A program made the position numbers and the translations under genes. DNA of 64,000 nt from a bacterium. GTDB lineage: Bacteria; Hinthialibacterota; Hinthialibacteria; Hinthialibacterales; Hinthialibacteraceae. The DNA lies in NCBI GenBank assembly GCA_963662285.2, contig CAXXMV010000006.1:224001-288000 (forward strand), read 5' to 3'. This document shows positions 2,268 to 20,604 of the stretch, in pieces; position 1 is the first letter of the stretch, and the number at the start of each line of letters is the position of its first letter. Below the pieces are notes generated by a model, which made no database searches, was not told the origin of the DNA, and saw only the letters and a list, made by a program, of their open reading frames with translations.

Positions 2268-3707
2268 TTACAATGACCATCCATCCCGGTACGTGCGATG
2301 TAAGAACTTATTAGCATCCTTGTCATTGGTGATTTTCATGTTTGGTCCATCCCAATCAATCCTGCGGCCAGCCCGTAATGCGACGTTGCCTAACAGGGGC
2401 GTCTCTGTGAGTATTCCTCCGTGATCTACAAAGTTCGATCCGGGCGCCTCTCCACCCCGGCAGGCATTGACCCATTCATCAAAGTGTCCCGGAGAGCGGG
2501 GCAGCGTCTTGGGCGGCTGCTTGTAGGCTTTCATTTTTGCATCGGTGAATATTTGGCGTCCCATCATTGTGCCCTTATCTCCGACGTATATTATGCCTGA
2601 CGCGCTGCGCCCCGGTTCAAGGTCTTTAGGACGGGCTGGCTTCAAACCGCCGTCATACCAATGCAGCGTAACCGGAGGCATATCGCCGCGCGCCGCGAAT
2701 TCGTAATGCGCCAGAACTCCCAGCGGGTATACATCAGGAAACATCTTGGTAGAACTGGCTTCAACGCTGATGGGATGGGTTAGATTCAAGGCCTTGAACA
2801 CGGTTGATAATGTATGGCAGCCCAGATCGCCCAATTGGCCGTTGGCGAAGTCCATCCAGTTGCGCCAGACCCAGGGATGATATTCGGGGTGATAGGGGCG
2901 CTCCGGCGCAGGTCCAAGCCATAAATCCCAATCCAGCCCGTCGGGAACCGGCGGCGTCTCATCGGGGCGTCTTAGAAACGCAGGCCAATGCCAGAACCGG
3001 GCGGAGATCGAAACATGCACTTCATGCACATTACCAATGGCGCCGTCGGCGATTATCTCTCTGGTCAGGCGGTCTTCTTCGGTGGCTTGTCCCTGGTTGC
3101 CCAGCTGGGTGGCAACTCCAGCGCGTTTGGCTTCCCGGGCGATCATCCGCGCTTCCTGCACCGACCAGGTCAGCGGCTTCTCGCAATAGACATGCTTGCG
3201 TTTTTTCAGCGCCGCCATAGTGACTACTGCATGAGAGTGATCCGGCGTGGCTACCATAACGGCGTCAACGTCTTCCTTCTCCAGCAGTTCGCGGTAATTG
3301 GCGTATGCGCGGCAGGCTTTGTATTGGGCTTGATCTTTTTGTTCAGAATAGAATTCATCAACCATACGTCGCGCCGGTTCGCGTCCTGAAATCTTGGTTT
3401 GTTTACCTTGCTCCCAGTCCCACGAAATATAGCCGTCGCTCTCGCGGTTCACATCGCAGACCGCCGCAACCTGGATTTCATCGAAGCGCAGGAATGTACG
3501 CAGGTTTTGACGTCCCCGTCCTCCCACGCCAATGCAGGCCAAGGTGGTTTTATCATTCGGCGCCACTCCGGTTGTCTGCGCTAGAACATGAGCAGGAACA
3601 ATGGAGAACGCCGGGGCAGCCATAGCCTTGTGCAGAAACGTGCGACGGGAAACTACATGATTGGATTTGCCCGCTTCATTATTGATTGGTAAACCAGTAT
3701 TTTTCAT
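2268..3707 (-). CDS. Tat-exported Gfo/Idh/MocA family oxidoreductase
   Basis: SRRTFL signal; IGVGGRG Rossmann motif; ATPDHSH; CEKP; DLGCH. Confidence 0.9.
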   Translation of the reverse strand: MKNTGLPINNEAGKSNHVVSRRTFLHKAMAAPAFSIVPAHVLAQTTGVAPNDKTTLACIGVGGRGRQNLRTFLRFDEIQVAAVCDVNRESDGYISWDWEQGKQTKISGREPARRMVDEFYSEQKDQAQYKACRAYANYRELLEKEDVDAVMVATPDHSHAVVTMAALKKRKHVYCEKPLTWSVQEARMIAREAKRAGVATQLGNQGQATEEDRLTREIIADGAIGNVHEVHVSISARFWHWPAFLRRPDETPPVPDGLDWDLWLGPAPERPYHPEYHPWVWRNWMDFANGQLGDLGCHTLSTVFKALNLTHPISVEASSTKMFPDVYPLGVLAHYEFAARGDMPPVTLHWYDGGLKPARPKDLEPGRSASGIIYVGDKGTMMGRQIFTDAKMKAYKQPPKTLPRSPGHFDEWVNACRGGEAPGSNFVDHGGILTETPLLGNVALRAGRRIDWDGPNMKITNDKDANKFLHRTYRDGWSL

Positions 3708-3888
3708 CGCCGAACCTCACATGATTTATTGAGTTATTCTACCAAAAATTATTCTATATTTATACCCGAAGATTATTATTCCCTGGATTGTCTTTGAGTC
3801 ATATAATACTTTACTGAAGCCGACTGTATTGCGAAGCCGATATCTTGATGATAATCTACCAGTATAAATATCGACAAGTGCGAAAGGA

Positions 3889-5202
3889 ATGACGATGGAT
3901 ATTCGTTTGGCCTATGGAAAAGATGGATTGAATGTAAGCGTACCGGATGAAAATATCGCCGGAGTAATTCACATGAATCAGATGCCTCCGGTTGAAAATT
4001 TGAAAGAGTCTATTCTGGAATCCCTGCAAAATCCCATCCAGAGCGCTCCACTATCAGAAATCGCCCAGGGGCGCGAGTCGGCGGTAATTGTAATTTCCGA
4101 TATCAGCCGTCCGGTTCCCAACCAGGTGATCCTTCCGGTTATTCTGGATACTATCGAACAGTCTGGCATCCCCCGCGATAAGATTACCATCCTGATCGCA
4201 ACCGGCATTCATCGCCCTAATCTCGGTGATGAACTGATCGAGTTGGTAGGCGAGGATATAGCCAAGAACTACCGTTGCGAGAACCATTACTCCGAAGACC
4301 CAAACGCTACTGAGTACGTCGGCGACATCGGCGACGGCATCCCCATATATATCAATAAACATTACCTGGCCGCTGACTTGAAAATCGCTACCGGTCTGGT
4401 CGAATTGCATTTAATGGCGGGATTCTCCGGAGGCCGTAAAGCCATCCTGCCCGGCATCGCTTCACTGGAAACCATGAAGCATCTGCATGGATACCGCATG
4501 ATCCAGAAAGATACCGTCTGCAACGGTCTGCTCAAGGGCAATCCCTTCCACGAAGGATCGGTTGAAGTGGCGCGTAAAGTCGGGGTTGATTTCATCGTCA
4601 ATGTAACGCTCGACGAAGAGCGGCGCATCACCGGCGTCTTCAGCGGAGACCTCGAAGCAGCCCATGAACAGGCCTGCGAGCTGATCAGAAAGAGCGCGTT
4701 GGTCGAGATCGAAGCCGAAGCCGATATCGTCATCACCAACGGCGGCGGTTACCCGCTGGACAAGACGCTCTATCAATCCATCAAAGGTCTGGTCGGAGCA
4801 TTGGACGCGGTCAAATCAGGCGGCACGGTCATCATCGCCACCCTCAATGAAGAGGGCGCGGGCAGCGAAGATTTCGAAAAACTACTGCGCAGCCTGGATG
4901 ATCCAATGCAGTTTTATGATATCGTCATGGGGCCGGATTACGTCGCCAAAGATCAATGGATGATTCAGGAACTGGTTAACGGATTGCATCATTGCGAGGT
5001 GCTCTATTGCACCGAAAACATCAGCGATGAGGATTTGCGCGCTTACAACCTCAAACCAATCTCTACGGTAGAAGAAGGCATCGAGCAGGCCCTGGCCCGT
5101 CATGGTAAAGACGCCAGCATCCTGGTGTTGCCCGAAGGTCCATACGTGATTCCCAAGTCGCCCAATCCCAAACAGAACCTGTATTCATGGCAAACCGCCT
5201 AA
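3889..5202 (+). CDS. larA: LarA family nickel-pincer-dependent 2-hydroxyacid racemase/epimerase
   Basis: SDISRPVP, ATGIHR, H.MAGFSGGRKAILPG, GGYPLD..YQSIKG motifs; substrate unknown. Confidence 0.85.
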   Translation: MTMDIRLAYGKDGLNVSVPDENIAGVIHMNQMPPVENLKESILESLQNPIQSAPLSEIAQGRESAVIVISDISRPVPNQVILPVILDTIEQSGIPRDKITILIATGIHRPNLGDELIELVGEDIAKNYRCENHYSEDPNATEYVGDIGDGIPIYINKHYLAADLKIATGLVELHLMAGFSGGRKAILPGIASLETMKHLHGYRMIQKDTVCNGLLKGNPFHEGSVEVARKVGVDFIVNVTLDEERRITGVFSGDLEAAHEQACELIRKSALVEIEAEADIVITNGGGYPLDKTLYQSIKGLVGALDAVKSGGTVIIATLNEEGAGSEDFEKLLRSLDDPMQFYDIVMGPDYVAKDQWMIQELVNGLHHCEVLYCTENISDEDLRAYNLKPISTVEEGIEQALARHGKDASILVLPEGPYVIPKSPNPKQNLYSWQTA

Positions 5203-5221
5203 TGCGTCATTAGAAAACATG

Positions 5222-5250
5222 TTGCATTGATTAGAATTTGATATTATACT
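5222..5250 (+). promoter_or_regulatory. putative sigma70 promoter
   Basis: TTGCAT-N17-TATACT upstream of 5301. Confidence 0.5.
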
Positions 5251-5300
5251 GAATATAATCTTAATAGAACTACAGAATCATCAGAAAGGACTTCGAAAAA

Positions 5301-5819
5301 ATGCCGGTCAAACCAAGTGAACAAACCATCTTGAAAACTTACACGCTTGATGAACTGATCGATTTAACAAAACAAAGAGCGCAGATGGAAGTTCGGGAAC
5401 AAATGAATGAAGCTCGAAGTCATCTAGATGCGCTATCTCTGTCCATGGGCGAGAAGACAAAAAGCGCTGTCAGCCTCCCTGTCAAAGCAAAAGGCAAGGT
5501 TGCGAAATCCAAAGCCAAAAAAACCAAATCACGACGCGCGGCGAAAGCAGCTGTTGAAAAAGTCACAGCGGCGCCAGCCGCAAAAGACTCTGACGCCGGC
5601 GCCGCAACGAAAATGTCCCTGGGCAATCACCTGACAGCAGTACTGCGCGCCAAACCGATGGATATCAAAACCATCACAGCTGCTCTGGCTGAAAATGGCT
5701 ATACCAGCGAATCCAAAGACCCACGGCGCATCCTATATCTAGAATTAAAAAAGCAGATATTAAAAGGAACCGTGGCCAAAGTTGGACGCGGCAAATATAA
5801 GAAAACCAAAAAGAAATAA
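5301..5819 (+). CDS. basic nucleoid-associated-like protein (N-terminal helix, K/A-rich linker, C-terminal winged-helix-like domain)
   Basis: RBS GAAAGGA; very Lys/Ala-rich; C-terminal KVGRGKY wing; own promoter and terminator. Confidence 0.65.
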   Translation: MPVKPSEQTILKTYTLDELIDLTKQRAQMEVREQMNEARSHLDALSLSMGEKTKSAVSLPVKAKGKVAKSKAKKTKSRRAAKAAVEKVTAAPAAKDSDAGAATKMSLGNHLTAVLRAKPMDIKTITAALAENGYTSESKDPRRILYLELKKQILKGTVAKVGRGKYKKTKKK

Positions 5820-5855
5820 TTTCTTGTAACGCTTAAACAGATAAACTCGTTAATC

Positions 5856-5901
5856 AGGGTATAGACCGTGTTTGATTACATGGTCTATACCCTTTGTTTT
5901 T
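5856..5901 (+). terminator. intrinsic terminator
   Basis: AGGGTATAGACC..GGTCTATACCCT hairpin followed by T-rich tract. Confidence 0.75.
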
Positions 5902-5924
5902 GTTATGATTTTGCCTTGCAACAC

Positions 5925-5958
5925 GTCGGGTGGTTCACGCTTCACCGACCCACCGAAT
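5925..5958. repeat. degenerate GTAG-type REP family B
   Basis: Similar to GTAGGGTGGGTCGCG..GACCCACCGAAT at 54056. Confidence 0.6.
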
Positions 5959-5991
5959 CAATATTGTAGAACATTACCAAACTCTCTAATG

Positions 5992-6957
5992 CTATTCGTT
6001 CTCAGGAAACCAAGAGCGTATGAACGACGCTTCGGTTCCTGCATAGGATGCTTTGGCGAGGAATTCCACGCCATGTTGGTTCCCCCACGAGTAGAGAATT
6101 ACGGTTTGTCCCCGGAATTCGCAGAAATCGATATCGGAGTTGTTTATATTCTTTGCTTCTGCGATCAATTTTCGTTGTTCAACAGTCAGTTTCGGATTAG
6201 CAATTTTTTTATCATCTTCGCTGTGACGCAGTACGGGATTGAGTGGACTTGGTTCCCAGTGCATCAAGTCCTTGGAACGAACCACGCGCATCTCGTATCC
6301 CTGGTAGGCTTCCAGGTAGAAATCGTAATAGTAGCCTTCGAGGTAACGCAGGCAATGCGGCGCTGTGTAGCGGTCTTTGGAGTATACGCATTCGGGAGGC
6401 GTTACTGTCCATGAGATTAAATCTTTTGAAGTTGCGAAACGGGCGGTGAATCCTGCTCCAGTCTCTTCTTTGGGAGCGCCGATTTCGAACATCAATACAT
6501 AACCGTTTTTATCCCGGCACATTGATGTGTTGAAAATCTCGTATTTTGAAATATCCAGTACGGTTCGCGACTGCCAGTTTATCATATCCGTGGAATAAAA
6601 TAATTCGATCCGGCTGCCGCCCCATTTATCAACCCCGGTAACATAGACCGTTTTACCATCCACAAACGCACTGCCCAAATGATAGCCCTTGGCGAAACCT
6701 TTGGTTGGTTCTTGCGCTTCTACATCGATAAACCGGAAATACGAATCTCCTGTTGTGTTAGGTTTATATTTTGCGCGGACATATTCGAACCAGTAGAGAC
6801 GGTCTTGGAAAACAACAGGCGTACATTCAACCAGATCGAGATCAATGGTTCCATGTTTCACTATCAAAGGTTTTTGCAGTAATCCCGTTTCATCCGCTAA
6901 GCCAAAGGGTATTACCTGAAACATCAGCAGCAATAATAAAGCATATCGCAATATCAT
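5992..6957 (-). CDS. secreted glycoside-hydrolase-like five-bladed beta-propeller protein
   Basis: Signal peptide; repeated S.DL..W blades; NPVL. Confidence 0.65.
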   Translation of the reverse strand: MILRYALLLLLMFQVIPFGLADETGLLQKPLIVKHGTIDLDLVECTPVVFQDRLYWFEYVRAKYKPNTTGDSYFRFIDVEAQEPTKGFAKGYHLGSAFVDGKTVYVTGVDKWGGSRIELFYSTDMINWQSRTVLDISKYEIFNTSMCRDKNGYVLMFEIGAPKEETGAGFTARFATSKDLISWTVTPPECVYSKDRYTAPHCLRYLEGYYYDFYLEAYQGYEMRVVRSKDLMHWEPSPLNPVLRHSEDDKKIANPKLTVEQRKLIAEAKNINNSDIDFCEFRGQTVILYSWGNQHGVEFLAKASYAGTEASFIRSWFPENE

Positions 6958-7037
6958 GGTTTTCTCCTCATAAAAATTGTGATTGGTATTTTAATGTAGA
7001 AACATAATAGAGTATCAAATTAGCGTTATGAAGTCAT

Positions 7038-7121
7038 GTAGGGTGAGTCGCGCTTTATCGACCCACTGCAAGCCACTATAGTCCACCATAATCGGTGGAT
7101 CATAAAACGCGACATCTCTAT
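7038..7121. repeat. REP doublet (REPIN-like), family B
   Basis: Two inverted REPs, GTAG outer-left and CTAT outer-right; same layout as 54056-54137. Confidence 0.75.
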
Positions 7122-7142
7122 GGGGCTAGATAAGACGATGGA

Positions 7143-8933
7143 TTAGAATATATTTCTGAAATAATCATGATTCAAACCCATTAAAGTTACAGCTTCTTTA
7201 ACATGCTTTTGTCGTAAGGAATTTGAATTATTAAGATCGGCAATTGTTCTGCTTACTAATAATAGTTTAACTTCCATCCTTTTTGTCAAATCAAGTCTTT
7301 TATAAATATCATTTAAATAATTCTTTGTTTCATCTGGAATGGCATTGGAATATTTTTTGAATTGTGCTTTGTCTTGAACTTCTGAATTAGTGTTTATATC
7401 ACTAGATTCAAGGAATCTTGCTCTTTGATATTGCCTTGCTTTAGTGATATTGCTTTTTATTGTGACCGTTGCGTAATTCTTGGCTTCTTCAAATGAATCA
7501 TCACATGATGATACAAAGACTTTCAAATCGATTCTGTCCATTAGAGGTTGGCTCAATTTGTTACGGTATTTATATATCTCTCTTCCTGAACATTTGCATT
7601 TTTTATACAGTTTCTTGTCAGGGTGATCTCTACATTGGGAATCTTTCCCAAAAAATGCTTTATTGCATACAGGGCAACAATAGTGACCTAACCAACCACA
7701 CTTACAAGGATTCATGGCTGCCACAAATATAAAACTACAAGGATATTCTAGTGTGCTGTGAACTCGTTGTACTTTGTTAACACGGTCATTTAATATGTTT
7801 CTTAATTTGTCAAGAGTATCTGGTTGAAGTAAGTTTATCTCATCGAATAATAGAATCCCATTATGTGCTAGTGAAACAAGGCCAGGAGCCGGGTATGGAG
7901 TTCCTCCTCCAAATAATGCGGCAGGAGTAGCGTTATGTACTTCTTGATATGGACGATTATTAATTATTTCATTCTCTTTTAAGTCTCCTTTTGCACTATA
8001 TATTTTATTAACTTCAAATATTTCTGATAGACTCATTTCAGGAAGAAGCTTCGTTGCAGCTTTTGCTAACATCGTTTTTCCGTGGCCTGGAGGACCTACT
8101 AGAAGAATATTATGACCACCAGCAAGAGCTACGGTCATTGCGCGTTTTGCAATTGATATTCCTTCAATATCTTTTAAATCAGGAACCTGACGTAAAATCC
8201 CTTTTTTTATAATATTCCTATTTTTTATCCTTGTTTTTCTTACAGATTTTATTCCTAAAATAACATTCCATACTTCCTGTAAATCATATGCCTTATAACT
8301 TTTTACATTTTTCTTAGTACTAGTCACAATGGAAGCATGAACTTCTGCATCTTCCGGTACAATTAAAGTAAATCCTTCTTTAACACATGAAATCATACCA
8401 AACATGCCTACCTCAGGTGAGATTATGCAACCTGAAGTTATTTCTAAAGTGCCAATTAACAAGTATTTATTTTTGTTTTCTGATAGCCTCTTTTTGTATT
8501 GTTCCACTCTATTTTTTTGGTTTATTAAGGCTTCTATATTTTTTATAATGCATGCTTTTTTATCTAAATCTCTTGGATTTTCTCCTAAATTTGTAATCTT
8601 TGTCTCGAATTCTTTGATCTTATCATTAATTTTATCTAAATTTTGTAAGATGCTTGCATGCAATAGTTGAATAGCTATTGGCAAATCTAGTCCAGAGGAA
8701 TTTTTAGGCGTCCCTGCTGGACTTAATGCTAATGTATAACCCTGATTATCTAATATATCAGACCAATCACCGTCTAATGTTTCAATCGCTTTAGATGCTC
8801 TTATAAAACCTTCTTTTACTACTTTACTTGCAAGACCTAGAATGCTAACACTGCTTCTATTCTCATCTTTTGTAGCCGTGAATCGTACTAAGTTTCCTTC
8901 TATACCGTGAATATCTGCACCATATATTTCCAT
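7143..8933 (-). CDS. divergent ComM/YifB (Mg-chelatase-like) AAA+ ATPase
   Basis: LSPAGTPKNSSGLDLPIA, Walker A GPPGHGKT, Walker B LLFDE, AAMNPCKCG, PLMDRIDL, RTIADL; AT-rich. Confidence 0.9.
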   Translation of the reverse strand: MEIYGADIHGIEGNLVRFTATKDENRSSVSILGLASKVVKEGFIRASKAIETLDGDWSDILDNQGYTLALSPAGTPKNSSGLDLPIAIQLLHASILQNLDKINDKIKEFETKITNLGENPRDLDKKACIIKNIEALINQKNRVEQYKKRLSENKNKYLLIGTLEITSGCIISPEVGMFGMISCVKEGFTLIVPEDAEVHASIVTSTKKNVKSYKAYDLQEVWNVILGIKSVRKTRIKNRNIIKKGILRQVPDLKDIEGISIAKRAMTVALAGGHNILLVGPPGHGKTMLAKAATKLLPEMSLSEIFEVNKIYSAKGDLKENEIINNRPYQEVHNATPAALFGGGTPYPAPGLVSLAHNGILLFDEINLLQPDTLDKLRNILNDRVNKVQRVHSTLEYPCSFIFVAAMNPCKCGWLGHYCCPVCNKAFFGKDSQCRDHPDKKLYKKCKCSGREIYKYRNKLSQPLMDRIDLKVFVSSCDDSFEEAKNYATVTIKSNITKARQYQRARFLESSDINTNSEVQDKAQFKKYSNAIPDETKNYLNDIYKRLDLTKRMEVKLLLVSRTIADLNNSNSLRQKHVKEAVTLMGLNHDYFRNIF

Positions 8934-8934
8934 G

Positions 8935-9432
8935 TTATTTCCTCATATGTGGATGTTTTAAAGAATGATGATATTCGCAAAGAGTAATCAAATTATCAAT
9001 AGCATTTGTTCCGCCTTTAGACAAAGGAATAATATGATGTACATGGAGTGTGTCACTGCAATAAGCGTTAAACTCTTGGCATTCAAAATTATCTCTCTCT
9101 AAAACATTATTCCTTATTGAAATCCAATCTTCACCATAATCTTCTTTATTCAGTACATTTTGAGTAGGAATATTAATACTGCTAATACGACTCCCATCGA
9201 AATCTTTTAAGTCATTTAATTGTTTGTCTATGAGTTCGTTTTTTTCAATTAGAGAGTTATAAGTATCTGATTGCTGTACACAAGATTTATAAATAATCTG
9301 CGCATTATGAATTTCATTCTTATTATTTAAAAATCCAAATGAAAATAATCTGAGCCAAAAATCTTTATTTTTTGCCTGTTCTAATTTCTTATGGGCGCTT
9401 TTAATAGACTTTACTAATTGTTGTTTAGCCAT
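8935..9432 (-). CDS. HNH endonuclease with N-terminal helical/coiled-coil extension
   Basis: W..IR..VLERD..EC..C...HVHHIIPLSKGGTN...NLITLC..HH..KH. Confidence 0.92.
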   Translation of the reverse strand: MAKQQLVKSIKSAHKKLEQAKNKDFWLRLFSFGFLNNKNEIHNAQIIYKSCVQQSDTYNSLIEKNELIDKQLNDLKDFDGSRISSINIPTQNVLNKEDYGEDWISIRNNVLERDNFECQEFNAYCSDTLHVHHIIPLSKGGTNAIDNLITLCEYHHSLKHPHMRK

Positions 9433-9439
9433 TTTTTGT

Positions 9440-10534
9440 TCATAGATTAAAACTGTCTTGTATTAGAATTGCTTCTGAAAGAACATTTTTAAGAATTTTG
9501 AGTATTTGAGTTGAATCTATATCAGAGTATTTGATGTTTTTCTTTATTATGAAATGTTTAATACGATGAGTTTTCTCTATACAAATTATACTTGTAAGAT
9601 TTTTTGTTCCATGAAATTCTAGTATTTCAGATGAGATGTTTTCTTGAAAAGGAAGATTAATTTTTATGCATAATAATTCACTTTCAAAATTAAATATTAA
9701 ATTACCAATAATCTGATATTCACTATGATTAAATTTTATCTTGATTTTATCGAAATGCTTTTCTAATTCGAACGTAAGTTGTGAATCGATATTCATGTCA
9801 TGATAAATCTTATCTATTATATTGATTGATGCATTAGATTTAAGTTCGTTTATGGACGCTTCGTCATTGTTCATTGTTTCAAAATTTTTGTTTTGGGTAG
9901 GAGTATTATTTAAATCAATATTTTCATCATCATTGTTATCATCGAAATTAATAAACAAAGAATAAGGATCTTCTTCATCTTCTTCCAATGGTTTATTGGA
10001 TAAACCTTGAAGAAATCCATCATCACTATGATCTAAAACAGGATTATTATCTTCGTTGATATCATTGAAATTTTCATCTGGTAATTCAGGTAGATTAACT
10101 ATTTCAAATTCATTATCCTCATTTTCTATATTGATAGATTTAGTAGTCTCGGGATTTCTTGGATTGTTGATTTTTTTGTAGATTTTATCACATAATTTAT
10201 CATAAGAATCAGAAAAATTTCTATGGATTTTTAGGCGATTATTATGTTCTGTTTCATACGAGGTTACAATATTGGCTCTTTTAAGGCTTGCAATAGCTTT
10301 ATTTAAAAGAGTTGTTAATTCCTGTCTTTTCTTGCCCAGTGGAATAGTATCAACAAATAGGGTTAAATAATGTGAAACATGTTTTGTAATATCCGTGGAT
10401 TTACAACTCTTATGTTTGAAATCTAGAAGTGTTCCGACTATTGCAACTTTAGCAATGTCAATCGAAATATCTTGCATTTCAACGTTATTTAGTGAAAAAT
10501 AATCATCAAGGATTTCAAATGTATCCATTTGCAT
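9440..10534 (-). CDS. hypothetical protein (helical N-domain, acidic D/E/N linker, alpha/beta C-domain)
   Basis: 364-aa ORF with RBS GAGGA in AT-rich DNA; first gene of a tightly coupled operon. Confidence 0.8.
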   Translation of the reverse strand: MQMDTFEILDDYFSLNNVEMQDISIDIAKVAIVGTLLDFKHKSCKSTDITKHVSHYLTLFVDTIPLGKKRQELTTLLNKAIASLKRANIVTSYETEHNNRLKIHRNFSDSYDKLCDKIYKKINNPRNPETTKSINIENEDNEFEIVNLPELPDENFNDINEDNNPVLDHSDDGFLQGLSNKPLEEDEEDPYSLFINFDDNNDDENIDLNNTPTQNKNFETMNNDEASINELKSNASINIIDKIYHDMNIDSQLTFELEKHFDKIKIKFNHSEYQIIGNLIFNFESELLCIKINLPFQENISSEILEFHGTKNLTSIICIEKTHRIKHFIIKKNIKYSDIDSTQILKILKNVLSEAILIQDSFNL

Positions 10535-10642
10535 TAATTCCTCGAACTGCTTATAAATTATTAAATTTTATAAAATACGAAATCACCGAATATTCAGTAT
10601 CGCATATTTTTTTTACATTTTCAATGATATTAATTACTTATT

Positions 10643-10666
10643 TCACATTATAATATTATGATGTGA
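10643..10666. promoter_or_regulatory. operator-like palindrome containing a TATAAT box upstream of the island operon
   Basis: TCACATTATAA-TA-TTATGATGTGA, one mismatch between arms. Confidence 0.45.
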
Positions 10667-10668
10667 CG

Positions 10669-10708
10669 TATGTGGATTGATTAATTGGTCTTTAATCTAA
10701 TCCACATA
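10669..10708. repeat. hairpin/degenerate REP at island right boundary
   Basis: TATGTGGATT..AATCCACATA perfect 10-bp arms plus inner GATTAA/TTAATC. Confidence 0.55.
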
Positions 10709-10781
10709 TCCCCCATAGACGGTTCGTTTATCAAGTAGATATGATATTATTATCCAAACACATTTCACGGGAGAACGAGCG

Positions 10782-11813
10782 ATGCTGGCAGCGGTTTTGA
10801 AGGATTTTAATCAATTGGTGTTGGAAGATGTTCCGGTTCCTCAGCCGGGGCCGGGGCAGGTTTTGGTGAAGATTAAATCGTGCGGCATCTGCGCCACCGA
10901 TTTTAAGGCTATTACGGGAATAAGGCGTAATGTCGAGTTCCCCATAATCACGGGACACGAACCATCCGGTATTGTCGAGAAGACCGGCGCCGGGGTGACT
11001 CATGTTAAACAAGGCGACGCGGTTATCGTGCAGCCCAGCGGCTTCTGCGGTTACTGCCAGCATTGCCGCATGGGAAACACCCACTACTGCGAAGGCTCGT
11101 TCACCACTGGAGGCGACGGTCCCCCCGACACCCGCAATGGCAGTTTCGCCGAGTACACCCTTTGTCAGGTCGAGCAACTTTATCTCAAACCGGACAACCT
11201 CTCTTTTGACGAAGCCTGCCAAACCGAACCGCTCAGCGGCGCCTGGAAAGGCGTGATCAACTTTTCTGAAATGAAAGTGGGCGATGATGTAGTAGTGGTT
11301 GGTTCCGGTGGAATCGGCATGTACTGCCTGATGGTCGCCAAAGCGGCTGGCGCGGGACGTCTGATCGCGGTCGATATCAGCGATTACGCCCTCAATACCG
11401 CCAAAAAACTGGGCGCCACCCATATTGTTAATCCCAAAAACTGCGACGCCAAACAGGCGGTATACGATATTATCCCTGGAGGCCCGGATTTGATCGTCGA
11501 GGCGGCGGGACCAATCGATGCGGTTAAACTGATGGTCAGCCTATTGCGCCGGGGAACCCGGTGGAACGTTTTCGGCATCACCACCCACGAGAAATTTGAA
11601 CTGGACGGCGGCTTAACCCACTTCCTCGAAGCGCGGATGGATTCCAGTTTCGGAACCAACCCGCTAGCCATGCAGAACGCCATCCGTTTGATGGAGCGGG
11701 GATTAGTCAATCCCGAAGACGCCATCTCGCACCGCTTCCCCCTAAGCGAAATTCACGCCGCGATGGAGGTAATGGCATCGCCGGAACGCAATAAAGTAGT
11801 CATCAATCCTTGA
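10782..11813 (+). CDS. Zn-dependent medium-chain alcohol/polyol dehydrogenase
   Basis: CGICATD, GHE, CxxCxxC..C structural Zn, GSGGIG. Confidence 0.92.
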   Translation: MLAAVLKDFNQLVLEDVPVPQPGPGQVLVKIKSCGICATDFKAITGIRRNVEFPIITGHEPSGIVEKTGAGVTHVKQGDAVIVQPSGFCGYCQHCRMGNTHYCEGSFTTGGDGPPDTRNGSFAEYTLCQVEQLYLKPDNLSFDEACQTEPLSGAWKGVINFSEMKVGDDVVVVGSGGIGMYCLMVAKAAGAGRLIAVDISDYALNTAKKLGATHIVNPKNCDAKQAVYDIIPGGPDLIVEAAGPIDAVKLMVSLLRRGTRWNVFGITTHEKFELDGGLTHFLEARMDSSFGTNPLAMQNAIRLMERGLVNPEDAISHRFPLSEIHAAMEVMASPERNKVVINP

Positions 11814-11840
11814 TCTAATATAATGTGAATTATAAGAATT

Positions 11841-11873
11841 GTAGAGTGGGTCGCGCTTGATCGATCCACCGAA
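11841..11873. repeat. GTAG-type REP family B
   Basis: GTAGAGTGGGTCGCGC..GATCCACCGAA. Confidence 0.7.
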
Positions 11874-11984
11874 GACATGCCTTGTTATTTCCCAAAATTC
11901 CTCTCCCCCAATTTGGGAGAGAATACAAGATGTGGTTGTTTGCTGCAACCATAGATTTTCCAATTGACTTTAGGATTATATATC

Positions 11985-12136
11985 ATGGATAATAAACAAG
12001 TTAAATCGGATTACGCTGTCTAAGTCAAAAATGATGGGTATCAGATTTCATTGGAGACGTGGAAGATATTCCGTATTATCCCCGACCGGGATTCTTATTC
12101 CCTAAGAGGATACGGGTAATGGATGAGTCCGGTGAA
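11985..12136 (+). pseudogene. decayed small conserved hypothetical gene
   Basis: MDNKQVKSDYAV*VKNDGYQISLETWKIFRIIPD.. then frameshift to RIRVMDESGE; internal TAA 12021; ends at GGGCGCCC. Confidence 0.55.
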
Positions 12137-12267
12137 GGGCGCCCTGCGTTTTTTCGATCCACAGATAATAATGAATTGATGCGATATATTCATTGACATG
12201 CTTTACAATTCATGAGATAAATATTTGGAATTAATTTTATCTTTATAGAAGACAGGAGAAAAAAAGA

Positions 12268-13284
12268 ATGAAAAAAAAACATTTATGCGTCGTATTATTT
12301 TTGACCGTCGCGTGCACCGTATCGCTGACAGGGTGGTCGGATCCCTTCACTCCGGGCAACCTGGTCCTGGCGGATTGCAAACTGGACCGCTTGATCGAAG
12401 TCAAAATGGGGGATGCGGAATGCGAAGTTGTCCAGGTGGTAACATGGCCGCTGGGTGACATGAAGCGGCGTCGACCCCTGGGCGTTGCTTTCGACTCGGT
12501 TGGCAACTGCTACGTCGGTTGCACCGGCGTTCCCCAATCCGCTACCGAACTGGTCGACTATCCAACGGGACTTGCGGAAATTCTACGCATCACACCGGAT
12601 GGATCTCAACAGTTTTATCGCATGCCCAACACGATTGAGAAAATCTGTTGGACGAAAAGTTTCGGCCCCAACGAAGTGTTTGTGATGAGCAACGCCTTCT
12701 CATCTCATCCCACTTATCATTTCCGCGTTCGCTTTGACGGCGATACGATGCTGGAGCCAACACTTTTCGAAGTCTGCAAGGAAGCCGACGGCGATGGTAC
12801 CGCACTCCTGCTTGCCGACGGTCGGATATTGATCGCGAACGACGCCGAAAGCGTTATCAACATCTATGACGAAAACGGCGGCGAGCCTGTCGGTCAGATT
12901 CCCACCGAAGCAAACTACAATTCATTGGATTATTTGGAAGGAGCTCAATTCCTGGTTTGTTTAACCAATGATCAGCGTAGTGTGCATTTGGTCGATTTCG
13001 ATGGCGCCATTCACGACAGTTGGAATTTTATCGATGACGGGATTCAGCAGGTCTTCAACGTGCTCTTCATCCCCGGCGATCCAGACCACTTCGTCTGCCT
13101 GGATAAAAATCCAACCGCCGACACAATCAACAAAGTTTTCGTATATAATGCCAACGATTTCTTTGAACTACCCAAAGTTCTGCCGCTCGTTGGTTTGGAA
13201 GCATTCGGTTCGACGGACGAATCCTATTTCGATTACGCCTTTGTAAGCGAACCGGTTTCCGTTCCTGAATGGTCGATTTATTAA
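12268..13284 (+). CDS. secreted beta-propeller-like protein with C-terminal SVPEWSIY tail
   Basis: RBS AGGAG, signal peptide, NHL/SMP-30-like strand PLGVAFDSVGNCYV. Confidence 0.7.
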   Translation: MKKKHLCVVLFLTVACTVSLTGWSDPFTPGNLVLADCKLDRLIEVKMGDAECEVVQVVTWPLGDMKRRRPLGVAFDSVGNCYVGCTGVPQSATELVDYPTGLAEILRITPDGSQQFYRMPNTIEKICWTKSFGPNEVFVMSNAFSSHPTYHFRVRFDGDTMLEPTLFEVCKEADGDGTALLLADGRILIANDAESVINIYDENGGEPVGQIPTEANYNSLDYLEGAQFLVCLTNDQRSVHLVDFDGAIHDSWNFIDDGIQQVFNVLFIPGDPDHFVCLDKNPTADTINKVFVYNANDFFELPKVLPLVGLEAFGSTDESYFDYAFVSEPVSVPEWSIY

Positions 13285-13391: not shown

Positions 13392-13661
13392 ATGGATAAG
13401 AGAATCGCCATTCAAATGGAGAATATAATTGTGAATGCCACCGAAGAGATTATAGCGAAGATGGAAAAACTTCCTCCGGAAGAAATACGTGAGATTATTC
13501 AGCACTTTCAACCTGAAGATAAATTTTCGGACAAAATCACCCGTCAACTTCTTCAAGCAAAAAAAGACTCTGATGAAGGAATCAACATGAGTCCGGTTTA
13601 TAAAACCAAAGAAGAGGTTCAAGCCCATTTTGATCGCTTGGAAAGTAAAATTACTGTTTAA
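13392..13661 (+). CDS. putative type II antitoxin (RelB/DinJ-like)
   Basis: Small ORF upstream of RelE-family toxin; C-terminus GINMSPVYKTKEEV resembles RelB tails. Confidence 0.6.
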   Translation: MDKRIAIQMENIIVNATEEIIAKMEKLPPEEIREIIQHFQPEDKFSDKITRQLLQAKKDSDEGINMSPVYKTKEEVQAHFDRLESKITV

Positions 13662-13744
13662 AGCGATTATCAAAAATATGTTCGTTTATTATCACGTTTG
13701 GTTTTCAAATCGCAAATCAGAACATTATTATGAAAACTACTCCA
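13659..13744. mobile_element. IS630-like MITE between antitoxin and toxin
   Basis: Imperfect TIRs TAAAGCGATTATCA / TGAAAACTACTCCA; homologous to 16761-16878 and 31958-32024. Confidence 0.65.
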
Positions 13745-13745
13745 A

Positions 13746-14009
13746 ATGGATATAACTTTTCACAAGGACTTTGATAAGGCTCTTGAGAAATTCCCTCCGA
13801 AGACAAGAGATAAAGTTAGAAAAGTCCTTGATACTTTTCAAGATGATCCGCATGATCCCCAACTCGACAATCACGCCCTTCATGGCAATTTGCAGGATTT
13901 CCGATCAATTTCTGCAGGAGGAGACTTACGATTGGTTTTTGTGCAAGAAGATAACTACGAGTATGTACATTTCTATTTGGTTGGAACCCATAGTCAATTA
14001 TACGAATAA
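13746..14009 (+). CDS. RelE/YafQ-family mRNA interferase toxin
   Basis: F.K.L.K, NHALHGNLQDFRSIS..GDLRLVF, VGTHSQLY. Confidence 0.9.
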   Translation: MDITFHKDFDKALEKFPPKTRDKVRKVLDTFQDDPHDPQLDNHALHGNLQDFRSISAGGDLRLVFVQEDNYEYVHFYLVGTHSQLYE

Positions 14010-14209: not shown

Positions 14210-14282
14210 TGGAGCGCATGGGACTCGAACCCACGACTTCTACCTTGCGAAGGTAGCGCTCTCCCAGCTGAGCTAGCGCCCC
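14210..14282 (-). tRNA. tRNA-Ala(CGC)
   Basis: GGGGCGC acceptor with G3-U70, anticodon loop TTCGCAA, T-loop GGTTCGAGTCC. Confidence 0.95.
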
Positions 14283-18785: not shown

Positions 18786-19238
18786 CTATGAGTTAATGGT
18801 CTTGGTTTCTTCTTCGCAGAACAATGTTTTGCAATGTGGAGAATTGGCTATGTCCTTTATGGTCATACTTCTCAAAACAGCCAACATTTGCTCTTGCGCT
18901 TCCTTAAATAAATTTCGTAAAGTACATTCCTTAGATTGATCGCAGTTCCTGATTTCCCAAGAACAGTTAAATTCAGCTACATCTTGATCCATTGCTATAA
19001 CAACATCAGCGATAGTGATTGTGTGGGGTGGTTTTTTAAAAACAAATCCACCGTGTTTTCCACGTATCGATTTTATTAATCCTGTTTTAACTAGATTTAG
19101 CATAATTCGAGCTAAATAGCTCTCTGAAGCTTGCACTGAATTAGCCAACTTACGGATCATAATCGGCTCATCAGTTGGTTGCTCCGCCATTGTGATTAGA
19201 GCATGTATTGCAAGATCAATGCTTTGGGAAAATTTCAT
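18786..19238 (-). CDS. Rrf2 family transcriptional regulator with three Cys (IscR/NsrR-like)
   Basis: SYLARI..L...GLIKSIRGKHGGF, ITIADV, C-x6-C-x5-C. Confidence 0.92.
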   Translation of the reverse strand: MKFSQSIDLAIHALITMAEQPTDEPIMIRKLANSVQASESYLARIMLNLVKTGLIKSIRGKHGGFVFKKPPHTITIADVVIAMDQDVAEFNCSWEIRNCDQSKECTLRNLFKEAQEQMLAVLRSMTIKDIANSPHCKTLFCEEETKTINS

Positions 19239-19247
19239 AGTCTTTTT

Positions 19248-19297
19248 ATAACCTGACTCTTTTTATCAAGTTATCATGAATCTTAAATCAATGTCAA
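19248..19297 (-). promoter_or_regulatory. Rrf2-type operator overlapping a sigma70 promoter (autoregulation)
   Basis: ATAACCTGA-N9-TCAAGTTAT (19248-19274); minus strand TTGACA-N18-TAACTT. Confidence 0.6.
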
Positions 19298-19740
19298 GAC
19301 CGTTTTCCCATATATATAATCATTAATATCACTTGATGAACTACTGGATACGGATGCGATAACCTAACATATATAATTTAAGGTGATTACATAGTTTTTC
19401 TGGGCTTTTTTTGGCTCACGATATAATATGGAGTCAAATAATATAATTTCGCATAAATGAGGAAAAACCTTAAATTTAAAACCGTCTTTTGAATGTTGTT
19501 TATAAATCATGTTGAATTTATCTAGAAATTACGACAGTAGTATACCTAAAATGTCGGTGAATGTAACCCATAATATCATATTATTCAACTATATTTTAGA
19601 TTATCCATGTATATAATAATTTAGGCGCCCGGATGAGGACTAACATTGGCAATAAACATAGGTTACAATCTTTAACAATCAGTATTGCATCGGTGGGGTT
19701 TCAATTCTGAATCGAACATTCGAGCGATTCGATATATAAT

Positions 19741-20604
19741 ATGAGAAATATTCCCGGATATTTATTTAAGCGATTCTTTTTGCCTGTTATCATGTCCTTG
19801 TCGCTTGTCGTTTTGGATTCTGCGTCCGCCTATTCTGAATCATCGAGTGGAGACCGTCCTACTGCAAAAACTTTCCATTTTCTGCTTTGGCAGGGGCCTG
19901 CATCTTTTAATAAAAGCGCGACCAGTACGATAAATGATAAGTTGCCTCTGGAGAACGCATGGCATGATGGAAGGCTATTGTCGTATACCGGGCGGGAAAT
20001 TCGCATACTCAGCCCTAAAGGTGAGCCTTTGGAGAAATATCTTCGTATTGTTCTTAATTCTCATCCAGAATGCATCGAAGGCGATCCCGGACTAATTGAA
20101 CGCGTCGTCAATCAACAGAATAGAGAATATATACCTATTCTTCAGGTTAATTTTCAATCAGATAAACAACTGCCCGCCTTGCAGGGGGAGATTATATTTC
20201 TGGAGCAAAGTGATTTATGGCGGGGCCGTTTGGGAGTGGTTCATCCTGAATATGACATTGGCGGTCGCAGTCAAATTGAGTATTGGGCTAATAAGACCGG
20301 GCAAAATCCTGATACAGTAACCTTGTATTCTTCCAATGAAGCATTAAGGCACCTGTTTGTTGGTAGTATTGAGGCCGCCGCTATCCCTGAAGGCGTTTTG
20401 GAAACGTTCCTTCACGAACATAATAAAGATGGATTACTTGATAAAATTATTCGCGTTCCAATGCCCTATAAAGGTCATCCATCGGTGATTTTTCTAAGGC
20501 AGGATCTTTATCATGATCCACTTATGCGTACTCTGATCAGTGAAACCTGGCTAAGGGATCATTTTCCGGATAAATTACAACTGATTCCAGCCGTTACAAA
20601 TTGA
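19741..20604 (+). CDS. exported PhnD/SsuA-like substrate-binding-fold protein
   Basis: Signal peptide; SS.EALRHLFVG.IEAAAI segment typical of PBP type 2. Confidence 0.55.
   Translation: MRNIPGYLFKRFFLPVIMSLSLVVLDSASAYSESSSGDRPTAKTFHFLLWQGPASFNKSATSTINDKLPLENAWHDGRLLSYTGREIRILSPKGEPLEKYLRIVLNSHPECIEGDPGLIERVVNQQNREYIPILQVNFQSDKQLPALQGEIIFLEQSDLWRGRLGVVHPEYDIGGRSQIEYWANKTGQNPDTVTLYSSNEALRHLFVGSIEAAAIPEGVLETFLHEHNKDGLLDKIIRVPMPYKGHPSVIFLRQDLYHDPLMRTLISETWLRDHFPDKLQLIPAVTN

Follow-up and report, generated by a model that had tools for sequence, protein, structure and literature searches.

A three-gene cassette with a ComM-like ring ATPase, an HNH nuclease, and a reader-like protein as a candidate defense system in a Hinthialibacterota genome

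The DNA studied here, denoted as the window, is a stretch of 64,000 nucleotides (nt) from a bacterium of the Hinthialibacterota (assembly GCA_963662285.2, contig CAXXMV010000006.1, positions 224,001 to 288,000; the source genome is referred to as G000), and coordinates given without a prefix are positions in this window. It harbors an AT-rich island of three genes, named A, B, and C, that encode a reader-like protein, an HNH nuclease, and a long-form ComM/YifB-like AAA+ ring ATPase. The order of these genes is conserved in other loci, the catalytic motifs of nuclease and motor are intact, folds could be assigned to A and C, the relatives of A carry exchangeable head domains, composition and distribution of the island fit a foreign origin, and C is a paralogue of the resident comM product. 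The trio is regarded as a conserved candidate defense system in which both the motor and the gate are unusual. The evidence leans, if only slightly, towards a horizontally acquired cassette that provides an ATP-dependent, probably modification-sensing, restriction-like defense by joining a reader, a nuclease, and a ring motor. Such a role is suggested by domains shared with restriction and defense proteins and by mobile-element and defense-type genes that neighbor the cassette in other genomes.

The ring motor, the nuclease, and the reader-like protein

The three genes are co-oriented and separated by only 7 nt (A-B, 9433-9439) and 1 nt (B-C, 8934), in agreement with an earlier reading made from the sequence alone (hereafter the sequence-only reading). 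Its description of the trio as an unknown protein, an HNH nuclease, and a ComM-like protein is likewise borne out by the Pfam and NCBIfam identities. C shows the domain order of ComM/YifB, with a ChlI/Lon-like N-domain (PF13541, 9.7e-10), a Mg-chelatase AAA+ domain (PF01078, 1.3e-63), and a C-terminal domain (Mg_chelatase_C, PF13335, 5.8e-15; all from Pfam). Compared with TIGR00368, it reaches 302.3 bits and thus stays under the cut-off of 362.4, the match being distributed over three stretches that are split by inserts. A separate canonical comM gene, the presence of which the sequence-only reading had left to be checked, is found elsewhere in the genome (G000:C2:311129-312622) and attains 645.1 bits on the same model; its product is 34% identical to C. 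C belongs to a populous long form, the members of which comprise ~585-610 residues and show 44-59% identity among the best 120 rows. They differ from canonical ComM by a helical hairpin of ~54 residues in the N-domain, a Cys-rich, zinc-ribbon-like insert of ~26 residues placed after the MNPCKCGW motif, and a short C-terminal tail. In the predicted structure of C (pLDDT 88.2, pTM 0.84), the first of these inserts is formed by helices 99-115 and 120-152. K286, D364, E365, N408, and R467 are invariant in 29 long-form sequences, as are the cysteines C410, C446, and C448, and these residues are taken to represent Walker A and B, sensor 1, the arginine finger, and pairs of zinc-binding cysteines in line with AAA+ proteins in general. 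C420, C423, and C434 of the Cys-rich insert are invariant as well. The putative ATPase motifs and zinc-binding Cys pairs of C are accordingly read as intact. The closest solved protein by sequence is ComM of L. pneumophila (8rxd, E 5.4e-82), and the closest folds found by Foldseek are again those of ComM (8rxt/8rxd, TMt 0.87, 26-27% identity), with MCM proteins far behind.

B matches the Pfam HNH family (E 5.5e-10, 39.7 bits versus a cut-off of 21.4), and ~75 helical residues precede the nuclease domain. Ten positions (C118, C125, H132, H133, N143, N147, C152, H155, H156, and H160) are invariant in 20 B sequences, and the HNH core, with its predicted catalytic His/Asn residues and Cys/His zinc ligands, is intact. 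Matches of the HNH profile in the PDB include Cas8f-HNH, IscB, and McrA (6ghc), while PADLOC assigns generic HNH models only (ZorE, DpdF, mREase_IV).

A belongs to no family in Pfam, NCBIfam, or PADLOC. An AlphaFold2 model based on 15 sequences (mean pLDDT 71) shows two folded domains, for which values are mostly 84-96, i.e. an N-terminal winged-helix head and a C-terminal tail, connected by an acidic, disordered linker. This linker has a net charge of -25 in the window protein, is negatively charged in 14 of the 15 aligned proteins, and contains the conserved motif [LI]P[DE][LI]P[DE]. Foldseek relates the head to the winged helices 1tbx and 2co5, and winged-helix rows reach Z values of about 9 in VIA-align. 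For the tail, Foldseek returns ExsC (3kxy, E 2.3e-4, TMt 0.61-0.65) within a set comprising ExsC, SycH, VecA, CesT, and YbjN (E 2e-4 to 7e-3, TMt 0.56-0.66). VIA-align, which is independent of Foldseek, gives DR_1245 (4h5b, Z 13.4, rmsd 2.6, 120 residues aligned), SycN-YscB (Z 12.7), and ExsC (Z 12.4). The modeled tail thus has the alpha-beta(3-4)-alpha-beta(2)-alpha fold of class I chaperones of type III secretion systems (T3SS) and YbjN. By sequence, it falls into no Pfam or NCBIfam family and has no match in the PDB at E<=1 (searched with the A profile). The partner genes of A encode a nuclease and a DNA motor, and no secretion context is present.

The first gene diverges rapidly. The ESM Atlas yielded no usable match, and word-index protein searches recovered A itself alone or, with a profile, A and one fragment. 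In an exhaustive profile search, E<=1e-3 was reached by 323 representatives, 1e-10 by 160 of them, and 1e-30 by 38; members of the family are 11-24% identical to the A protein of the window. In 81 representatives that bear the tail, the head region is variable: it corresponds to Mrr_N, the winged helix of Mrr-family Type IV enzymes, in six cases, to a NusA_N-like domain in three, and once each to HARE-HTH, DUF4357, a topoisomerase zinc ribbon, and others. The A homologue in locus L008 starts with an EVE domain (27.4 bits versus a cut-off of 23). In the protein P0203, Mrr_N takes the position of the winged helix ahead of a tail homologous to that of A (hhalign 97.8%), and its Mrr_N part matches the PADLOC model mREase_IV for Type IV restriction. 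Another member of the family, L101:3871-5034, shows a weak N-terminal match to CarD/TRCF-RID (Tudor-like; 21 bits, below the cut-off of 23) and possibly represents a further head variant.

Conservation, foreign origin, and borders of the cassette

A first contig scan with the whole of C was swamped by canonical ComM and kept one long-form locus among 80; later scans used a long-form-specific alignment of 72 aa as a probe. In total, 29 related loci were gathered (L008, five more, and 23 from successive scans; L097 repeats L008). As the contig end cuts C in five of them, 24 are usable for the analysis of the upstream gene, and in 21 of these 24, an HNH gene lies directly upstream of C. Overlaps between the two genes measure 20 nt in 13 loci and 1 nt in four, and a distance of 3-4 nt separates them in a further four. 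A co-oriented open reading frame (ORF) precedes B in all 18 loci with sufficient room (full length, 321-496 aa, in 15), and 16 of these 18 ORFs join the A protein of the window in one BLAST-connected family, either directly or via intermediates. Conservation of the trio elsewhere, a point that the sequence-only reading had made decisive for its proposal, is therefore established. A fourth gene was looked for among 67 neighboring ORFs from 13 loci, and no BLAST pair across loci was obtained at 1e-5. Since no other ORF family is shared, the three genes are considered as the whole unit, dropped into different contexts.

Two kinds of deviation from this arrangement occur. In the Ca. Scalindua type (L102:308-3733, L089:63-2640), the first gene encodes a protein of 409 aa that combines a zinc ribbon with PCI/TrmB-like winged helices, and B comprises only 115 aa and is devoid of the N-terminal helices. 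The first gene of this type was considered as an A homologue and rejected (hhalign probability 0.2%). The joint replacement of A and loss of the B helices suggests that the tail of A may hold the N-terminus of B. In three other loci (L092:6542-8311, L093:6551-8317, and L113:968-2746), the long form stands alone, with neither an HNH nor a reader gene. These sequences form one clade (support 100) nested among trio-bearing ones in a quick IQ-TREE analysis of 30 rows, from which partial C sequences were left out. Two of the solo loci belong to Ca. Electronema genomes, which also keep a canonical comM, and the third is a related metagenome contig; in L092 and L093, the solo motor resides beside housekeeping genes (IF-2B-family, SecDF, Era-like). 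The solo long form may be a domesticated motor.

The island stands out by its composition. Its GC content is 0.303, compared with a genome mean of 0.44 (standard deviation 0.034 in windows of island length), and among 7262 windows of this length across the genome, only 10 have an equal or lower value, some of these overlapping the island itself. In 500-nt windows, the trio ranges from 0.24 to 0.36 and the flanking coding regions from 0.48 to 0.56, so that the contrast in AT-richness reported in the sequence-only reading is confirmed. A search of 60 related genomes (19 of the same family, 6 of the order, 9 of the class, and 26 further ones) at E<=1e-100 did not recover the long form. Both results fit a foreign origin of the island and uphold the horizontal acquisition put forward earlier. 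The names of the records that carry the long form include Acidobacteriota, Sedimentisphaerales, Planctomycetota, Ca. Electronema, Hydrogenedentes, and Thermodesulfovibrionales, and the cassette as such is present in several phyla, with named records from Planctomycetota, Kiritimatiellota, Acidobacteriota, Hydrogenedentes, and Thermodesulfovibrionales. A canonical comM above the cut-off exists in all of the five other long-form genomes checked, i.e. in 6 of 6 together with G000. Because a canonical copy is present elsewhere, the long form is missing from all 60 relatives, and the GC content deviates from that of the genome, C is a second, additional ComM paralogue of sporadic occurrence and not the resident, vertically inherited competence helicase.

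The sequence-only reading had also started from the premise that ComM is usually encoded together with the nuclease YraN and DprA. For YraN, this does not apply to the present genome, in which the match to UPF0102 (PF02021, presumably the YraN family) at G000:C2:1060262 is located apart from comM at C2:311129. Its statement that yraN and dprA are missing from the locus holds for the trio, where Pfam detects neither a YraN nor a DprA domain; no genome search was made for dprA.

The borders of the island are unequal. REP-like hairpins had been proposed for both sides, which is correct for the left one in so far as two modules (~30 and 22 nt) at ~7035-7114 occur in many copies throughout the genome, in both orientations and sometimes or often side by side. 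Parts of both modules are mutually complementary, and they resemble a dispersed element of the repetitive extragenic palindromic (REP) or miniature inverted-repeat transposable element (MITE) type. In the right flank, no dispersed repeat was found; instead, a unique, imperfect inverted repeat brackets the island. Its motif (two 9-mers and a short spacer) has only two sites in the 7.29-Mb genome, which are the two ends of the island, in inverted orientation. The local alignment score of the repeat is 29, a value matched by 2 of 200 shuffles. Terminal inverted repeats were considered as a cassette feature and rejected, since none of 10 other loci contains such a repeat; that of the island is hence of a local nature and does not belong to the system. 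Its arms could be those of a hairpin split by an insertion, remnants of an old terminal repeat, or protein-binding sites.

Upstream of gene A (~100-140 nt), a 23-nt palindrome (10636-10673) is overlapped by a promoter-like site. As promoter-like sites are no more common in the region (24) than in shuffles (mean 23.4), this site counts as a match to the consensus; a candidate promoter with a putative operator of the cassette is possible. A terminator scan of 6900-10850 found none. In the search for an empty site, the left-flank gene had its best orthologue in G002 (72-73% identity), where neither a syntenic alcohol dehydrogenase (ADH) gene nor other genes of the window were present within 17 kb, and as synteny is lacking around this orthologue, the insertion boundaries are not definable. 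One contig of sequencing run X1 is identical over 3000-13175; X1 is possibly the source sample and hence not independent. Run X3 provided scattered short pieces only and is uninformative on an island-free strain.

Relation to known systems and proposed function

Judged by their defining proteins, the cassette does not belong to McrBC, Septu, Zorya, or BREX. The nearest relative of its motor is ComM/YifB, which is reported to work with and bind the nuclease YraN (10.1101/2024.02.06.579203), so that a ring helicase of the same domain order is combined with a dedicated nuclease in both cases. The differences concern the nuclease, an HNH enzyme in the cassette and a PD-(D/E)XK enzyme in the case of YraN, and the operon, which in the cassette includes a reader protein. 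In its logic, the cassette is like McrBC and other ATP/GTP-dependent Type IV systems, which combine an AAA+ ring motor with a nuclease as a separate component and a DNA-reader module that varies. Its motor, however, falls into the ComM/Mg-chelatase clade and not with McrB, its nuclease is a small HNH protein and not McrC, and its reader, instead of being fused to the N-terminus of the motor, is a protein of its own that has an acidic linker and a chaperone-like tail. Among the PADLOC matches at E<=0.1, models of McrB or McrC are absent. EVE and Mrr_N-type heads, as found in the A family, are classic Type IV specificity domains, and EVE-HNH and EVE-PD(D/E)XK enzymes have been described (PMC7641849). 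A dependence on modified DNA like that of Type IV systems is suggested by one line of evidence, the EVE, Mrr_N, and HARE-HTH heads of A-family relatives. Compared with Mrr-family enzymes, the cassette is devoid of the catalytic PD-(D/E)XK domain.

The remaining systems are more distant. For Septu, the PADLOC search of the trio gave neither a PtuA nor a PtuB match. B matches the HNH region of the PADLOC model for ZorE at 1.5e-8, yet it scores only 14.5 bits on the NCBIfam ZorE model with its cut-off of 600, and unlike Zorya type II, the cassette has no ZorA/B-like genes. A motor precedent would be BrxL of BREX, an AAA+ ring that encircles DNA, contains a Lon-like domain, and acts in defense; no BrxL model is among the matches of C in PADLOC at E<=0.1, the domain order differs, and other BREX genes are absent. 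A connection of another kind exists with proteins of the Hhe/PDC-S37 type. The winged helix of A recurs at the C-termini of proteins of 800-1736 aa that combine a superfamily 1 (SF1) helicase (AAA_11/AAA_12) with a REase_MTES_1575 nuclease and are matched by PDC-S37, Hhe, and MkoC of PADLOC (homology to the head of A at E about 1e-11 to 1e-13). As in the cassette, a motor and a nuclease are united, but within one giant polypeptide, the SF1 helicase and Vsr-like nuclease of which have nothing in common with B or C. P0215, P0225, P0231, P0233, and P0243 (812-1736 aa) end in an unannotated A-like winged helix, and one of these five also has a GreA/GreB C-terminal domain.

C is proposed to assemble into a hexameric ring of the ComM type, which would load on DNA and move along it at the expense of ATP. 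B, translated in tight coupling with C, would ride on the motor and cut the DNA, a pairing for which ComM and YraN serve as a precedent; docking would probably occur via its N-terminal helices, either on the helical-hairpin arm of C or on A. A would act as a specificity and control subunit. Its winged-helix head would read the target DNA; in relatives, this head gives way to Mrr_N, HARE-HTH, or EVE or is extended by one of them. The B/C machine would be held or recruited by the chaperone-like tail of A together with the conserved motif of the linker. Physical assembly of the three proteins, the target, its cleavage, and a defense phenotype are inferred. A more far-reaching proposal is put forward tentatively, as something that may well turn out otherwise: a ComM-type ring translocase could here serve as the basis of an immune system for the first time, in a three-part restriction machine with a free-standing reader of exchangeable heads, in which a secretion-chaperone-like peptide clamp and an acidic, DNA-mimicking linker gate a motor-borne HNH nuclease, and which arose from a duplicated transformation helicase/nuclease pair turned against incoming DNA. 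No description of a ComM/YifB and HNH system was found in the literature searched; lists of candidate systems that accompany the PADLOC/PDC and modularity-network papers as supplements could hold the cassette.

ComM is the branch-migration helicase of natural transformation and helps foreign DNA to enter the cell. If the proposal is true, a motor that lets DNA in has been redeployed to keep DNA out, and the repertoire of motor-plus-nuclease defense gains a new motor class. A tail resembling secretion chaperones in a DNA-targeting system may, in addition, reveal a new way of gating a nuclease. Since the cassette is compact (3.4 kb), self-contained, present in several phyla, and equipped with clear catalytic residues, it is directly testable.

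Several observations weigh against a defense function. PADLOC 2.0 gives no system-specific match for the trio but generic AAA and HNH matches only, in line with the sequence-only reading, which had recognized no named system. The surroundings of the island within the window are metabolic (glycoside-hydrolase-like, Zn-ADH, and LarA-like genes) and do not form a defense island. In other loci, the neighborhood points towards defense: the neighbor families listed (the first 25 of 59 for Pfam and 25 of 28 for PADLOC) include HEPN_AbiV, PIN (at least two), a DrmC-like protein, rve integrases (at least three), a transposase, and a resolvase. In L008, a Sedimentisphaerales metagenome-assembled genome, an AAA ATPase (327 aa) and an S8 subtilase (824 aa) at 8032-11511 directly downstream of the trio match IetA (2.8e-72) and IetS (7.9e-29) of PADLOC, a known defense pair. 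As a background rate is lacking, these neighbors do not amount to a test of enrichment. The head of A in the window is a plain winged helix without a recognizable modified-base reader, and Pfam finds no Mrr_N in it. The alignment A3, which underlies the model of A and the exhaustive profile search, took in the first-gene product of L102, later shown to be non-homologous. The clade of solo motors implies that the motor can have a role without the nuclease. Of 16 matching records in the plasmid collection, the 12 listed show 28-36% identity and represent canonical ComM; of 23 in the phage collection, the 12 listed show 28-37% identity; neither collection contains a long form among these, and none of 15 pattern matches in IMG/VR was confirmed as one. 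Evidence for a mobile-element carrier is thus missing.

An association of B and C receives weak support from complex prediction. The pair scores 0.43 (best control 0.00), a range in which, by the rating of the tool, wrong predictions outnumber right ones unless the pairing was likely beforehand; at least 56% of the contacts agree between runs, and the pLDDT of the partners is at least 69. Of 80 solved complexes, 58 reach the mark applied, as do 2 of 110 mismatched pairs; scores of 0.60 or less include only 7 of these 80 and both passing mismatches.

Of the alternatives to a defense system, a selfish DNA-processing cassette survives best, although it is judged improbable. HNH enzymes are common homing nucleases, and B would set a break at a target selected by A, whereupon branch migration by the ComM-like motor would copy the cassette into the site in a homing-like manner without an integrase. 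The occurrence of an AT-rich, sporadic trio in unrelated contexts, with no shared neighbors and no integrase of its own, would be explained in this way, as would the unique inverted repeat around the window copy, and ComM is reported to extend recombination at D-loops with its partner nuclease (10.1101/2024.02.06.579203). The absence of flanking inverted repeats from all 10 other loci, the failure to find the cassette on the phage, plasmid, or viral contigs searched, and the lack of any recovered pair of empty and filled sites speak against it. Moreover, Mrr_N, HARE-HTH, and EVE heads fit modified foreign DNA better than a single homing site, and rapid divergence of the first gene is what conflict systems typically show.

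Somewhat less credence is given to a host module for recombination or repair, in which C and B would constitute a second helicase/nuclease pair, parallel to ComM/YraN and regulated by A, that acts on D-loops or stalled forks. The precedent of that pair (10.1101/2024.02.06.579203), the fold of C, close to that of ComM bound to double-stranded DNA (8rxd/8rxt), and the retention of the motor alone among housekeeping genes in the Electronema clade are compatible with such a function. A host module is, however, difficult to reconcile with the foreign composition of the island and the absence of the long form from 60 related genomes. In addition, canonical comM is retained in each genome checked, G000 having a UPF0102 match as well, and A combines very fast divergence with restriction-type reader heads in its family.

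Least plausible of all is a module of the abortive-infection or toxin-antitoxin type, in which B (with C) would be a toxin degrading the cell's own DNA, and A would clamp a peptide of B or C and autoregulate the operon until infection frees the nuclease and the cell is killed: T3SS-chaperone/YbjN folds bind extended partner peptides (according to PDB titles of chaperone-effector complexes), the palindrome overlaps the promoter-like site, the Scalindua-type loci hint that A and the N-terminus of B belong together, and PIN and HEPN toxins are among the neighbor matches listed, but the Mrr_N and EVE heads point to direct nucleic-acid sensing, and the difference from a restriction-like defense lies mainly in the target, i.e. 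self versus invader.

Feature coordinates and other genes of the window

The positions of the three genes, their domains, and the sites at the island borders are compiled in Table 1.

Table 1. Features of the three-gene island, given as window positions
Feature	Position	Strand	Remarks
Gene A	9440..10534	-	364 aa, ORF
Gene B	8935..9432	-	165 aa, ORF, HNH
Gene C	7143..8933	-	596 aa, ORF, long-form ComM/YifB-like AAA+ ring ATPase
Winged helix of A	10226-10462	-	residues ~25-103; predicted by AlphaFold2, Foldseek, VIA-align
Acidic disordered linker of A	9863-10159	-	residues 126-224; [LI]P[DE][LI]P[DE] motif
T3SS-chaperone/YbjN-like domain of A	9446-9862	-	residues 225-363; predicted by AlphaFold2, Foldseek, VIA-align
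HNH domain of B	8944-9138	-	residues ~99-163; Pfam PF01844
Helical-hairpin insert of C	8478-8639	-	residues 99-152; N-domain, versus canonical ComM
Walker A K286 of C	8076-8078	-	
Cys-rich zinc-ribbon-like insert of C	7599-7694	-	residues ~414-445; versus canonical ComM
Inverted repeat, left arm	7117..7150	.	imperfect, 34 nt; overlaps stop codon of gene C
Inverted repeat, right arm	10693..10722	.	just upstream of promoter-like site
Promoter-like site	10636..10676	-	consensus match (TCCACA, 18 nt, TATAAT; 10 of 12)

Outside the island, a gene for a YafQ/ParE-like toxin (87 aa, PF15738, 2.5e-8) follows an ORF of 89 aa without a family at 13392-14009, and the two probably form a toxin-antitoxin pair. 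A tRNA-Ala(cgc) gene on the minus strand (14210-14282) adjoins the YafQ/ParE-like gene. On the other side of the island, an ORF of 172 aa at 5301-5819 is rich in Lys and Ala, has no Pfam family, and looks histone-H1-like or nucleoid-protein-like by its composition. A second AT-rich stretch of the window, with a GC content of 0.30-0.36, extends from 19000 to 19750.

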